From Escherichia phage EP_H11: a stretch of DNA of 64,000 nt. This document shows, one piece after another, positions 29,601 to 43,354 of this stretch (positions are counted from its first letter, which is position 1; every line of letters begins with the position of its first letter). Where the stretch lies: the sequence record OP688485; one strand, written 5' to 3'. The translations under genes and the position numbers were made by a program. The notes beneath the pieces were generated by a model. That model searched no databases and was not told where the DNA came from. It saw nothing but the letters and a program-made list of their open reading frames with translations.

Positions 29601-32600
29601 TTAGCTAAAGTATGCGCGAACGTTCTTAACGAACGGACGGTTAACTGGGTTAGATAGAGACAGGGTGATGCGGATGCGGGTATTAGCCACATTTACTCCT
29701 GACAGTTTGTAAGGTACAGTATGCCAACCATCTCCCAGAGCGGTTCCGGTACTCCCAGGCAAAGACACCCATTCACTGCCTTTCTGGTACTGAACGGTTA
29801 CGCTAGCTCCGGACGGTACATACTGATCTAGGATGACATTAAGAGTTACCGGAGTAACGTTACCATTAGGAATACTGAACTGTCGCTGGGTATATACCCC
29901 AGGAGAATCAGTGGTACCAGAACGGAAGATGACACCACCGAAGACCTTCGGAGATACAGTAGGATCACCGGTATTAAACTCAGCCATCAGACTGAAAGTA
30001 CCAGAGAAGTTCTCAGTGTACGTTTCAGAGTTAACGTTGAGGTTAATGTTATCAGTACCGTTGGTGAGGTAGAATCTCACAGAGGTATTTGCCGGAGTCT
30101 CAATATCAGCAGTAAGTGACAGACTGTTGGTATTGCTGGCTACTGTTACAGAGCCCAAGTTAACAGTGCGGGTAGAACTGTAGTCAGCAGCATGGAGACG
30201 ATACATTAAGTCTTCATCCTGAACCGGAGACCAGGTAGATTCGTTCGCAGAAGTTAACAGTACACCTTGAGCTGGCTGATTCACTACATACTGTTTCTTA
30301 TCGGTATCGTACCCATTGATCTTAGCCGTAGCTACCTTACCCTGATAGTTAGCCGTAGCGACGATGATGGCGTACTCAGTACCACCAGTCACTGTTACTG
30401 GGTAACGAAGATTGATCTTGTTCCATCCCAGTACGCACTTATTAGCAGGAACTTCACCGAAGCCATAAAGCTGGGTAGAGTTTGGAATACCGACTAAAGT
30501 CGGAACCAGCTTAATCTGGAGCGTGTTGGTAGGTAGTTCAGTCAGATATACAGATACTGCGTTAATGTCACGAGTTGCCTGAAGAGTAAAGGTCTGAGCC
30601 ACAGGATCATAACCCCATGGTACAGCTCCACCAGTCCAGTTTTGACCGTAGTCGACCTTGCCGGAGTTATAGATGGTTACGGTACCACGAGTCACGGCCT
30701 TGGTGGTCTTACCGGTAGCAACATACTGGTACGTACCGTTAATCAAACCACCGGATAGCATGTGGGCATACTGTACTGCACCGTTATCATCTGCAGTCAA
30801 GGTAACCACCGGTAGGTTACGGAAGGTAAGATCAATCTTCTCATTAGCAGCATACCCAGACAGCTTAATCGTGATCGTAGTATCTACCGGCAGAAAGCCA
30901 CCATGGAAGTACGACCAGAAGCTACGCGTATCGATCTTAGCTGGTGAAACAGAGATCATCGCCTGAGGTACCTGACCAGACCCAGCATACGGGTTGATGC
31001 GGGTGTCCTTAGTACGGAATTCCTGAGACTGAATTACGGTATCAGTGAATGATAACATAGCACCATCAGGAGCCAGACCGGACTGTCGCGAGAAAGATGC
31101 TCCGATGAACAGCTGACCATCATCGATAATGGCGTTGTTGGTTAATCCAGCATCACGCATGTTACCGTTAAGCAGGGAGTCAACTACCACACCTTTCTTA
31201 GTCGTAGTCGGATCGGTAGAGCGAGTTTCATCACGGAGCGAAAGCTGGGCGATGTTGTACTGCATGTCGCTTACCAGAGACATCAGATCTTTCAGCTCAT
31301 TGTAAGTAACTACTTCGATACGATCATTGTTGATGACCGGATCCTGACCTTTAGTCAGACGAATAGTTGCGATAGACAGCAACGTAGCGGAAGTGCCTGG
31401 CAGTTGAGCATTCGCCAGGATTGCTGGAATACCCTTAGTGATCTGAACCGCACCGGAGGCATCTATAGATACACGGTCATAGCGAGACAGGAAGTAAGAG
31501 TAGGTTACATAGAACGTAGACCCAGATACCAGAGCATCACCGGTGGAGATAGTGATGGAAGTATTGTTCCAGGTTGGGACGAACTGGTCAATATACTGAT
31601 ACGTAACCTGATAGGTAGATCCAGGAGATGGTTCGTTACCAGTAGGTGACCAGTCTACGGAGTCCCCGTTCTGTACATAGTCACTGCCTTTAACATACAC
31701 AGTACCACCCTGCTGTACAGAAATAATCTGCAGAACAGGAGTATCCGGAAGTAAGTCAGACGAACCAGTTGCGGAGCCGTGAGTTACCGTACGAGTTACC
31801 TGCTTAGTACCAGAAACAGCAGTCACCTGATCAATTACAGAGTAGCGCAATTGATAGGTGTAAGTACCTGCTGTAAACACATACGGCTCGGAAGCTACGT
31901 TACCGGTATCGTTGATAGGGTCCAGACGCACGGTACTTTCATAGGCAAACAGTGCTTCATTACCAAGTACACGAGCCTTGCCCGCAGCCATGTTCAACAT
32001 GATCTGCTGGGTAGAACCATCGATACCTGCATAAGAAAGAGTTAGCCCATCCAGAACATAGTTACCGTGAGTGTCAGAATCGTAGCGGCCAAGAAGACCA
32101 GAGAACTGGTCGAGATCATTACGGGACTTAGTGGTCTTAACCAGTACACCATTCTTGAAGTAGAATACCGGGAAGAAAGTATCACCCTCAGGAACATCGT
32201 CAGACAGGAGCCAAGTGGTCACCTTCTGGAGACGATCAGCACCAGCTGAACCATAGCTAGGAGAGTTCTGATACTTCATGAGAAGCTCAGGATCATCAAG
32301 ATATGTGACTACCTTATCAGAGATAGATACACCTAAAACAGCCTCTCCAGAAGTCGGGAACGATGCGTCAGTAACAGCAGGTACATTCATAGCCATCCCG
32401 GCGTAGATTAGAGTACCCTCGGTTATAGAGATTACACCGTCCCCGAGAGCAGAAATATCCACCCCATCAGTAATGGCACCATCACCGACCAAGAAGCCGG
32501 ACAGTGTAGAGACGTTATTGAGCTGCTGATCCTGAATTTCGTTTAGCTCCGAGCTCTGGAGCGGTCTGTCCGCGATAAACAGATGTTTGGCATAGTTCTT

Positions 32601-32645
32601 TTTAGCCGCAAATCTGTTAAAGTAATCAGACGGTAAAGTTGCCAT
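29601..32645 (-). CDS. large tail fibre / receptor-binding structural protein
   Basis: 1014 aa, Ser/Thr/Gly/Asn-rich beta-rich composition, position distal to baseplate genes. Confidence 0.6.
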   Translation of the reverse strand: MATLPSDYFNRFAAKKNYAKHLFIADRPLQSSELNEIQDQQLNNVSTLSGFLVGDGAITDGVDISALGDGVISITEGTLIYAGMAMNVPAVTDASFPTSGEAVLGVSISDKVVTYLDDPELLMKYQNSPSYGSAGADRLQKVTTWLLSDDVPEGDTFFPVFYFKNGVLVKTTKSRNDLDQFSGLLGRYDSDTHGNYVLDGLTLSYAGIDGSTQQIMLNMAAGKARVLGNEALFAYESTVRLDPINDTGNVASEPYVFTAGTYTYQLRYSVIDQVTAVSGTKQVTRTVTHGSATGSSDLLPDTPVLQIISVQQGGTVYVKGSDYVQNGDSVDWSPTGNEPSPGSTYQVTYQYIDQFVPTWNNTSITISTGDALVSGSTFYVTYSYFLSRYDRVSIDASGAVQITKGIPAILANAQLPGTSATLLSIATIRLTKGQDPVINNDRIEVVTYNELKDLMSLVSDMQYNIAQLSLRDETRSTDPTTTKKGVVVDSLLNGNMRDAGLTNNAIIDDGQLFIGASFSRQSGLAPDGAMLSFTDTVIQSQEFRTKDTRINPYAGSGQVPQAMISVSPAKIDTRSFWSYFHGGFLPVDTTITIKLSGYAANEKIDLTFRNLPVVTLTADDNGAVQYAHMLSGGLINGTYQYVATGKTTKAVTRGTVTIYNSGKVDYGQNWTGGAVPWGYDPVAQTFTLQATRDINAVSVYLTELPTNTLQIKLVPTLVGIPNSTQLYGFGEVPANKCVLGWNKINLRYPVTVTGGTEYAIIVATANYQGKVATAKINGYDTDKKQYVVNQPAQGVLLTSANESTWSPVQDEDLMYRLHAADYSSTRTVNLGSVTVASNTNSLSLTADIETPANTSVRFYLTNGTDNINLNVNSETYTENFSGTFSLMAEFNTGDPTVSPKVFGGVIFRSGTTDSPGVYTQRQFSIPNGNVTPVTLNVILDQYVPSGASVTVQYQKGSEWVSLPGSTGTALGDGWHTVPYKLSGVNVANTRIRITLSLSNPVNRPFVKNVRAYFS

Positions 32646-32655
32646 TTAATTCCCC

Positions 32656-41829: not shown

Positions 41830-41839
41830 TATTTATTCC

Positions 41840-43354
41840 TCAAAGTTTAGGAGCCCTATTGTACTTTCCATCTCTCAGGATAGTATTATCATGGAGCTCT
41901 AAATATCGTTCAGTTTTGTGGATAGTCTCATGGAAACAGTATCTCCACTCAGACCAATAATCATACCAGCTATATGGCTTAAGATACTTATAATACTCAG
42001 ACTGCTTGAGATACCTAGAGCCGTCTAATAGGTGAGTACCATCTAAATTATCCAACCCGTTAAACGAATACCAGTCTATTGGGGTATTATCATTACCAGT
42101 TAAGTACTTAGATCCGGTGAGCCGGGAAGATCCGTCCAATAGTCCAATAGAAGAGCTGTAGCGAGGATCTGATGATAGATTCCTGAAATAAGTCCCATCT
42201 CTAAGCAGTTGTCCGTTATGATAGCCAACCAGAGATTGTAACATCTCATGCTCGTATGACTCATAAACTGCTGGATCGTATCCAGTAGGTATTACGTAGT
42301 TACCATCATAACCATACTTAACAGATGGTGGCTCCTTAAACCCATGGATTTTTTCCCTGGAACCGTTTCCGGTCTCAAAATCTACCTTAGAATTACCGAT
42401 TAACCTGCTGAAGAATTCCCTATTGATATACTGGGCAGCAGTTATTCCGGACACTGCATCTGTCAGAGTCATCATAGACTCTATCAGTATTTCTACTATA
42501 CTGTCTGCTGGCTCTATTTCAAGATTTACAAAAGAGTCTATCACTCTAGAATGGGAAGAATCGCTGAATGCGTAGTCTGTGTACACACCCATGTCCAGTA
42601 TCAACCCATTATCTAGAGCTACTCTACTGTTCTCGAACACCTTAAGATATGAGTCTATTACCCTCTCAGAGAATCTCTCTACTGCTAAATCTACAGATGC
42701 ATCCATTTCTGATAGGATGTCTAAGCAGAATCTTAACCATAGGTAATCAGAAATCTCAGGGACCCTAACACCAACTGATCCATCTAATATAGACGTATCA
42801 AGTAACCAACTAGTGTCCAGCGAAGCGCTTCCGAGAGAGTCAACACCGTCTGGTAGGCAGTTAGCGATACCGGTTAGTCTGACGCATATCGGAAATACCT
42901 TACGCGACAGACGATCAATTAGCTTAATCTGCCGAGTAGACAAGATCACGTTCTTAGGAAGCAGGATGGTTGCCAGTGAGCAGCCTTCCGGAGTCTTCTG
43001 ATACAAGATCTCTTCTATCTCTACATTTATCAGCTTAAAGATAAGATCAACCCCATCCTTCATACCCTTATTATCCAGGATACTTGGGAGGAGTACAGAT
43101 ACTGAGTTCTGGTCTACCTCGGTAGTTATGAGATCTGCTAAGTCTGGTTGACCCAGTAGCTCCAGGATGTAAATCGGATCATACGACGGTTTACTAGGAT
43201 CATAAATCGCAGTATTTTTATCCATCTCTGGAAAGACAACAGTCTCTAGACCATGATCCAGCACCTGCGAGAAGAACTTATATAGCTCGTTCCCTCTAAG
43301 GTTAGGAGAGAAGTAATCTAGAGTGTTGAACTTAGCCATACTCATACCCCGCAT
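41840..43354 (-). CDS. putative baseplate wedge / fibre attachment protein
   Basis: 504 aa, immediately downstream of baseplate J-like gene. Confidence 0.45.
   Translation of the reverse strand: MRGMSMAKFNTLDYFSPNLRGNELYKFFSQVLDHGLETVVFPEMDKNTAIYDPSKPSYDPIYILELLGQPDLADLITTEVDQNSVSVLLPSILDNKGMKDGVDLIFKLINVEIEEILYQKTPEGCSLATILLPKNVILSTRQIKLIDRLSRKVFPICVRLTGIANCLPDGVDSLGSASLDTSWLLDTSILDGSVGVRVPEISDYLWLRFCLDILSEMDASVDLAVERFSERVIDSYLKVFENSRVALDNGLILDMGVYTDYAFSDSSHSRVIDSFVNLEIEPADSIVEILIESMMTLTDAVSGITAAQYINREFFSRLIGNSKVDFETGNGSREKIHGFKEPPSVKYGYDGNYVIPTGYDPAVYESYEHEMLQSLVGYHNGQLLRDGTYFRNLSSDPRYSSSIGLLDGSSRLTGSKYLTGNDNTPIDWYSFNGLDNLDGTHLLDGSRYLKQSEYYKYLKPYSWYDYWSEWRYCFHETIHKTERYLELHDNTILRDGKYNRAPKL

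Follow-up and report, generated by a model that had tools for sequence, protein, structure and literature searches.

Four predicted tailspikes and a conserved baseplate frame in the host-recognition region of Escherichia phage EP_H11

Modular exchange of spikes, the presence of several depolymerases on one virion and the sharing of modules across phage families are well documented. In phage CBA120 of the Ackermannviridae, each spike recognises a different surface polysaccharide. In other contractile-tailed phages, BW3TFN proteins (T4 gp8, A511 gp105, phage 812 gp118) are dimeric connectors along the baseplate arm that join the receptor-binding proteins to wedge protein 3 (PMC10811340, PMC13433997), and in phage 812 the order is wedge gp116, arm scaffold gp117, arm segment gp118 and tripod gp119 (PMC13433997). 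Here we describe the adsorption region of Escherichia phage EP_H11 (OP688485), in which seven open reading frames (ORFs) of 504, 780, 560, 824, 472, 273 and 1014 amino acids (aa), all on the minus strand, occupy positions 29601-43354, flanked by a Baseplate_J-like gene (43332-44705) and a GH19-type endolysin gene (28743-29390). All coordinates are positions in the window, the stretch of 64,000 nucleotides (nt) that was analysed.

The first-pass annotation placed these seven ORFs exactly, in coordinates and lengths, and took all of them for fibre or tailspike genes. By sequence, four of the seven (780, 560, 824 and 472 aa) encode tailspike-type receptor-binding proteins. The other three are baseplate parts: a 504-aa protein in the scaffold position, with no fibre or spike signal, a 273-aa BW3TFN connector and a 1014-aa DUF4815 tripod protein. 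The proposal of a multi-receptor adsorption apparatus holds with four tailspike-type proteins, whose specificities would be for O-antigen or capsule. We consider it probable that this region encodes the distal part of the baseplate and the host-recognition apparatus of a contractile-tailed E. coli phage, in which a conserved frame is combined with four anchor-plus-module tailspikes swapped by recombination. The features are as follows.

41840..43354, minus strand: 504-aa protein, placed by its gene position at the wedge-3/arm-scaffold position (P2 gpI, T4 gp7, phage 812 gp117)
About 42587-43354, minus strand: conserved N-terminal half of the 504-aa gene
41840-42586, minus strand: C-terminal half of the 504-aa gene, in the replaced block; putative spike-docking part
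39487..41829, minus strand: tailspike 1, 780 aa, with Tail_spike_N, PHROG and PDB matches
41434-41829, minus strand: anchor of tailspike 1 (aa 1-132), with the shared motif and Tail_spike_N
39487-41433, minus strand: putative receptor-binding module of tailspike 1 (aa 133-780), common to Gamaleyavirus tailspikes
37743..39425, minus strand: tailspike 2, 560 aa, with tailspike sequence and profile matches
39096-39425, minus strand: anchor of tailspike 2 (aa 1-110), with the shared motif
37743-39095, minus strand: putative receptor-binding module of tailspike 2 (aa 111-560), common to Gamaleyavirus gp76-type tailspikes and Klebsiella prophage/phage proteins
35028..37502, minus strand: tailspike 3, 824 aa, with KP32gp38/K11-type homology
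36801-37502, minus strand: lineage-specific anchor of tailspike 3 (aa 1 to about 234)
35028-36800, minus strand: predicted KP32gp38/K11-type capsule depolymerase module of tailspike 3
33494..34912, minus strand: short spike 4, 472 aa, with a Tail_spike_N-like N-terminus, TSP4-N/gp9-like domain(s), a beta-rich body and a C-terminal beta-sandwich of about 100 aa
32656..33477, minus strand: BW3TFN arm-segment connector (T4 gp8, A511 gp105, phage 812 gp118 type), 273 aa, with a Pfam BW3TFN match
29601..32645, minus strand: tripod-type baseplate protein, 1014 aa, with DUF4815 at aa 8-570 followed by a C-terminal beta-rich part

The 780-aa protein carries a Tail_spike_N domain (48 bits against a cutoff of 25) and matches tail fibre, tail spike and EPS depolymerase PHROGs; its residues 127-249 are depolymerase-like (PDB 7vyv/7lzj, E=1e-9). 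The module downstream of its anchor is 88% identical in aa and 87% in nt to a 900-aa ORF of Gamaleyavirus NAN33P5, and similar matches were found in Klebsiella phage vB_Kpl_K57alpha1.2 and Escherichia phage CU10EC (87% nt). For the 560-aa protein, the module (aa 111-559) is 76% identical in aa to Gp76 of phage 24-32N, an annotated tailspike, as well as to a protein of Gamaleyavirus AN24P2, and 76-79% identical to proteins of Klebsiella prophages and contigs of about 150 kb; its family profile matches the tailspike depolymerase Solidus_gp83 (PDB 24qj, E=9e-21). Neither the 560-aa nor the 824-aa protein has a significant Tail_spike_N match.

In the Gamaleyavirus genomes the homologues of both modules occupy one gene slot, after the large terminase gene and that of a 235-aa protein, and the N-terminal 250 or so residues of these homologues share 72% identity and bear no relation to the window anchors. 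The EP_H11 phage therefore carries two alternative alleles of that locus side by side. The slot is the gp66-equivalent one of G7C-like phages, and it is to alternative alleles of this first tailspike gene that the two modules are 88% and 76% identical in aa. However, the virion-attachment parts (the N-terminal 250-300 aa or so) are unrelated, and in EP_H11 both modules are found in one genome, on myovirus-type anchors. Judging from these identities, the 780- and 560-aa modules are drawn from the same pool as the tailspikes of N4-like podoviruses (Gamaleyavirus).

Two database entries among these matches had unusual annotations, and neither annotation was used. In vB_Kpl_K57alpha1.2 (OY979416.1, 27930-29608), helicase, HNH and pyrophosphohydrolase pseudogenes are annotated under the tailspike match, the annotation apparently being out of register. 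Gene 01 of CU10EC (Escherichia phage vB_EcoP_CU10EC, 4007-7471) encodes a 1154-aa 'hypothetical protein' that consists of the tailspike module twice in tandem (aa 1-583 and 576-1153), probably an assembly artefact at the genome end.

Residues 274-823 of the 824-aa protein align to residues 46-574 of PDB 6tku, the K21-specific depolymerase KP32gp38 (E=1e-42), an alignment that covers the catalytic beta-helix and the C-terminal domains. The protein also matches the tail spike family phrog_19988 (E=2e-139), and it is 52-53% identical to Klebsiella phage tailspikes, 43% to the K11 tailspike and 36% to K64-1 S1-3. Its module thus appears to come from the K11/K21 depolymerase family of Klebsiella phages. 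Although the homology to the Klebsiella depolymerases (KP32gp38 for K21, K11, K64-1 S1-3) extends over about 550 aa, 36-53% identity is too low for the capsule type to be transferred; moreover, the N-terminal 234 aa are specific to the lineage of EP_H11 and its relatives (below), and the annotated host of EP_H11 is E. coli.

The region was then compared with that of related genomes. Escherichia phage vB_EcoM_IME392 (116 kb) is the closest relative of EP_H11 and the only close one that the phage collection contains; two Logan contigs from public read assemblies, L004 and L006, complete what is a rare lineage. The flanks of the cassette are 89-97% identical to IME392 (93-96% nt by megablast), and the 457-aa wedge protein upstream is 97.6% identical in aa. 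The nucleotide alignment runs from 47000 down to 42587 at 93% and from 33511 down to 27001 at 89%; between 42587 and 33511, the first 330 nt of the 824-aa gene are the sole part aligned. These alignment ends define a replaced block of 33512-42586, which measures 9.1 kb against 14.6 kb in IME392 (84097-98695), with breakpoints inside the 504-aa gene (42587) and at the start of the 273-aa gene.

Within this block only the N-termini of the 780-, 560- and 824-aa proteins are conserved in IME392, at 39-49% aa identity. EP_H11 and IME392 share the same backbone, frame genes and four anchor slots, but fill the slots differently. In the 780-aa slot (aa 1-165 conserved, 39-46%), IME392 has two short anchor-only Tail_spike_N proteins and then fibres with chaperones; in the 560-aa slot (aa 1-59 conserved, 49%) it has a K1-type endosialidase, and in the 824-aa slot (aa 1-204 conserved, 47.5%) a 'colanic acid-degrading' spike. 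The EP_H11 cassette has four spikes. L004 has an 824-type anchor 90% identical to that of EP_H11, yet a different C-terminal module, and L006 has an IME392-like cassette. The receptor-binding modules thus clearly appear to have been swapped in from unrelated phages at the anchor/module junctions. Horizontal acquisition of a 33.5-41.8 kb segment, as first proposed, is borne out by a replaced block of nearly the same extent and by two modules 76-88% identical in aa to Gamaleyavirus tailspikes.

The endosialidase of IME392 (91505-94492) is complete, with End_N_terminal, beta-propeller and Peptidase_S74 chaperone domains on the same anchor as that of the 560-aa protein, and is annotated as 'putative tail fibers protein'.

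An N-terminal motif shared by the ORFs at 37743-39425 and 39487-41829 had been noticed in the first-pass annotation, and it is real: BLASTP aligns the 780- and 560-aa proteins over their first 80 or so residues (E=1e-4), and the motif occurs in these two ORFs alone of all those in the window. Five proteins, namely these two and three from IME392, share the pattern E..D..GG..N.P..L..RT.YL without variation, with E18, D21, G25, G26, N32, P34, L38, R41, T42 and L45 as the invariant positions of the aligned N-termini. In all five it lies within the first 60 or so residues, and the sequences diverge after it. Five PHROGs match residues 1-47 of the 780-aa protein, and three of these, phrog_4209 and phrog_3100 included, are annotated as tail fiber protein, which makes this a general fibre anchor. 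The notion of exchangeable modules on a common adaptor thus applies to the 780- and 560-aa proteins but does not extend to the 824- and 472-aa proteins, whose N-termini are their own and different.

Base composition gave a second view of the same block. Its bulk G + C content is 43.4%, against 45.2% in the rest of the window, and values as low occur in 13% of equal-sized blocks of the window, the adjoining baseplate genes being equally low. The AT-richness suggested by eye for 33.5-41.8 kb is therefore marginal in bulk and does not distinguish the segment from the baseplate genes. At third codon positions (GC3), however, the block is the lowest in the window (37.4% against 45.4%), a drop hidden in the bulk value because the content at second codon positions (GC2) is high (45.6% against 38.3%). 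Within single genes, GC3 falls from the anchor/module junction on: the anchors have 0.41-0.47, like the backbone, and the modules 0.33, 0.395 and 0.34. Values of 0.38 and 0.39 were obtained for the 472-aa gene and the C-terminal half of the 504-aa gene, and 0.32 for the Gamaleyavirus homologues of the modules. Bulk G + C is thus no outlier, and the GC3 drop lies in the modules and not in the anchors. The pattern within genes fits an import of modules from a gene pool of lower GC3.

It could be argued that the dip follows from which amino acids spikes contain or how strongly their genes are expressed, and that the difference from IME392 is old divergence in place with no module import. The unremarkable bulk G + C agrees with this, as do the high GC2 and low content at first codon positions of the block, which indicate an unusual amino-acid composition, and the low GC3 (0.29-0.32) of the tail-fibre genes of IME392. 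But GC3 shifts at the anchor/module junction inside single genes; the 780-aa module is 87% identical in nt to phages of a different family, which megablast matches to no other part of the genome; and the modules that occupy the same slots in IME392 and L004 are non-homologous, not merely diverged. We regard this explanation as extremely improbable.

The three remaining ORFs belong to the frame. The 273-aa protein matches Pfam BW3TFN with 97.8 bits against a cutoff of 27 (profile positions 33-174), and the phrog_1394 alignment spans the entire protein around an inserted FN3 domain at about aa 35-137, with an Fn3-like PDB match at aa 72-129. It is 67.5% identical to its IME392 counterpart, the FN3 insert being the most divergent part (47-60% against 70-87%). 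By these matches the protein is a BW3TFN connector and not a fibre. The 173-aa BW3TFN protein of Kayvirus is without the FN3 insert.

The 1014-aa protein matches Pfam DUF4815 with 434 bits, and its only homologue of known structure is a chain of 1152 aa in the baseplate of Staphylococcus phage 812 (PDB 9euf, E=2e-44). In Kayvirus the gene order is a 348-aa Baseplate_J protein, a 1021-aa protein, the 173-aa BW3TFN protein and a 1152-aa 'adsorption-associated tail protein', which equals the gp116-gp119 order of phage 812. From this order and the 9euf match, we conclude that the 1014-aa protein is tripod-type and not a beta-helix spike. Further DUF4815 homologues were found in Herelleviridae, in phage WO and in the VrlC protein of Kuttervirus. 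The protein is a constant element of the region, 97.3% identical to that of IME392.

Searches of Pfam, PHROG, NCBIfam and PDB gave no match for the 504-aa protein, and only two homologues were found among 5.8 billion proteins. Its gene sits where the Tail_P2_I gene lies in phage WO and gp117 in Kayvirus. Since neither BLASTP nor hhalign detected similarity to these two proteins, we infer the scaffold role from position. Compared with IME392 the protein is 63% identical overall, with 90-100% identity in residues 1-200 and about 30% in residues 250-450. The C-terminal half thus diverges together with the spike anchors, as expected if docking sites lie there.

These results bear on the original reading, in which all seven ORFs are fibres or tailspikes with up to seven receptor specificities. 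All seven are indeed large and consecutive and lie between baseplate and lysis genes, and the tripod family of phage 812 has putative receptor-binding (carbohydrate-binding-module-like) domains (PMC13433997), so that the 1014-aa protein may touch the cell surface. However, the 273-aa protein is a connector; nothing in the 504-aa protein signals a spike or fibre, and its conserved N-terminal half belongs to the wedge side; and the 1014-aa protein is 97% identical across phages with different spike sets and so does not set the differing specificities. Seven specificities are therefore very unlikely.

The 472-aa protein stands apart from the other three spikes, and is either a constant spike or a branching hub. 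It gave a good AlphaFold2 model, with a predicted local distance difference test score (pLDDT) of 80, which resembles the N-terminal anchor/assembly domains of tailspike protein (TSP) 4. Tail_spike_N, P22 Head_binding or pectate-lyase domains occur in its distant homologues, and the protein itself can be aligned with the Tail_spike_N region of the 780-aa protein (E=5e-5). Full-length copies are retained in all three relatives (39% identity in IME392, 95% in L004).

If it served as a constant adaptor for branching, in the manner of T4 gp9/gp10 or the N-terminal part of CBA120 TSP4, the protein would bear the other three spikes and leave three specificities. Its being the only one of the four retained full-length in IME392 and L004 speaks for such a role, but the distant homologues are spikes with anchors of their own (P22 Head_binding, Tail_spike_N), and the protein ends in a high-confidence beta-sandwich that is C-terminal in many phage proteins and typical of a distal binding domain. 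We consider the adaptor role unlikely.

The C-terminal beta-sandwich (33494-33800, aa 370-472 or so, pLDDT about 95) recurs in several hundred representative proteins, both as stand-alone proteins of 110-250 aa and at the C-terminus of long ones. It has a weak match to the capsid spike of Pseudomonas phage Pa223 (9ny6) and no Pfam match in the scans made. A resemblance to the 560-aa protein seen by eye was dropped, the domain hidden Markov model having matched only the 472-aa ORF in the window.

The closest functional analogue of the region is the TSP1-4 apparatus of the Ackermannviridae (CBA120/Kuttervirus). In both, several consecutive tailspike genes, four of them in EP_H11, lie beside baseplate genes, and spikes of both carry Tail_spike_N domains. 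Kuttervirus dinky has four spike genes and, immediately after them, the gene of a 1612-aa VrlC protein with DUF4815 (E=6e-61), while in the window the spikes are followed by BW3TFN and then DUF4815, so that a BW3TFN gene intervenes and the DUF4815 protein is shorter (1014 against 1612 aa). EP_H11 and IME392 belong to another lineage, with genomes of 111-116 kb, and the window anchors have no sequence homology to the N-termini of TSP2 or TSP4. A branching topology in EP_H11 would be modelled on that of CBA120.

With the arms of the Herelleviridae (phage 812 gp117-gp123; A511 gp104-gp108), the region shares a homologous BW3TFN segment and DUF4815 tripod, as well as the relative order of wedge, scaffold position, segment and tripod. 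There the receptor-binding proteins follow the tripod, whereas in the window the spikes lie between the scaffold position and the segment. They are tailspikes of the enzymatic type of Gram-negative phages, unlike the tower-domain RBP1/RBP2; the protein in the scaffold position is half the size (504 against 1021 aa) with no detectable sequence similarity, and the arm segment has the FN3 insertion.

The analysis shows the homologies, the module boundaries, the replacement of the cassette and its compositional signature; attachment topology, enzymatic activity and receptor identities are what we infer in the following model. The frame would consist of the 457-aa wedge protein, the N-terminal half of the 504-aa protein, the 273-aa BW3TFN connector and the 1014-aa tripod, with four trimeric spikes encoded between them. 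As in the models of phage 812/A511 and CBA120, the N-terminal half of the 504-aa protein would join two wedge proteins, and its variable C-terminal half would form, with BW3TFN dimers, an arm or docking platform. The spike anchors might plug into this C-terminal half, into the BW3TFN connectors or into one another, giving a branched complex like that of CBA120 TSP1-4, while tripod trimers would bind at the same platform. Each spike would bind, and probably cleave, a different capsule or O-antigen type, and host range would thereby widen. Spike engagement would be passed through the constant tripod/wedge frame to sheath contraction, and recombination at the anchor/module junctions would exchange specificities.

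Several points weigh against this model. For the 780-aa module, a beta-helix fold would be an extrapolation beyond aa 250, and the AlphaFold2 model of the 560-aa protein, built on a 19-sequence alignment, was unusable (pLDDT 45), so that its assignment as a spike rests on sequence and profile matches. Cleavage of polysaccharide by the spikes is predicted from sequence homology, and their joint presence in one virion from their genes. The scaffold role of the 504-aa protein would follow only from gene position and from its half-conserved, half-diverged pattern. The full-length conservation of the 472-aa protein may mark a structural hub instead of a specificity determinant, and part of the low GC3 could be due to the unusual amino acids and codons that beta-rich spike modules require, and not to where the modules came from.

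A further idea, which we put forward tentatively and consider clearly less probable than not, is that EP_H11 and IME392 represent a structurally undescribed hybrid, a Gram-negative myovirus in which four enzymatic tailspikes are borne by Herelleviridae-type arms made of scaffold, BW3TFN segments with FN3 and tripods. The C-terminal 250 aa or so of the 504-aa protein, its docking half, would then be exchanged, or co-diverge, with the anchors as a 'plug and socket' cassette. If so, a switch of host range would need matched replacement of the docking half and the anchors.

The genes around the region are those of an ordinary myovirus baseplate. Upstream in gene order are a tape-measure-like gene with a lysin domain and genes for a hub, a gp5/V-type spike, a gp25/W-type wedge and the Baseplate_J/gp6-type wedge. 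The two genes that bound the region are as follows.

43332..44705, minus strand: baseplate wedge protein of T4 gp6 / P2 gpJ type, 457 aa, the conserved upstream boundary; phrog_219 baseplate wedge subunit (E=3e-25) and a weak Baseplate_J match
28743..29390, minus strand: GH19-like endolysin of the lysis cassette, the downstream boundary; phrog_181 endolysin (E=2e-59), with a weak Glyco_hydro_19 match on its L004 homologue

The tape-measure-like ORF (945 aa, 47881-50718) has a C-terminal endolysin/GH19-like domain at about aa 711-917 that also matches phrog_181, which points to a virion-associated lysin plus a paralogous soluble lysin. A scan of 28-46 kb for promoters and terminators gave counts equal to the shuffle expectation. 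Between the 560- and 824-aa genes lies the largest non-coding gap of the cassette (240 nt, 37503-37742), with no convincing ORF, promoter or terminator; it might represent an internal late promoter or the scar of a recombination event.

At about 27.6 kb the genes of the window change from the plus to the minus strand, forming convergent modules, and the GC skew flips sign there. The segment from about 15.1 to 25 kb has no megablast match to IME392 and represents a second variable region, among early genes. Searches of IMG/VR with the 504- and 273-aa proteins returned nothing useful. The literature mentions of EP_H11 that we found concern only its DNA polymerase and suspected thymidine hypermodification: EP_H11 and IME392 are reported to have a YerA41/SP-15-like DNA polymerase and an aGPT-Pplase gene, suggesting thymidine-hypermodified DNA (PMC12686479; bioRxiv 10.1101/2025.03.26.645540).

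The 560- and 504-aa products are 100% identical to EP_H11 proteins in NCBI nr, where they are annotated as hypothetical, and the labels in IME392 are loose ('tail fibers protein', 'colanic acid-degrading protein'). The analysis provides a working map with four host-range proteins, junctions at about aa 132, 110 and 234, and the constant parts of the frame. The anchor/module junctions are natural cut sites for retargeting the phage. The 87% nt identity of a module found in a myovirus and in N4-like podoviruses clearly documents exchange across morphologies among Enterobacteria phages. Through the BW3TFN and DUF4815 proteins common to both, the multi-tailspike phages of Gram-negative hosts are connected with the Gram-positive phages that have the tripod/arm-segment system. 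As an illustration of host-range change in phages, the EP_H11 cassette is good but ordinary.

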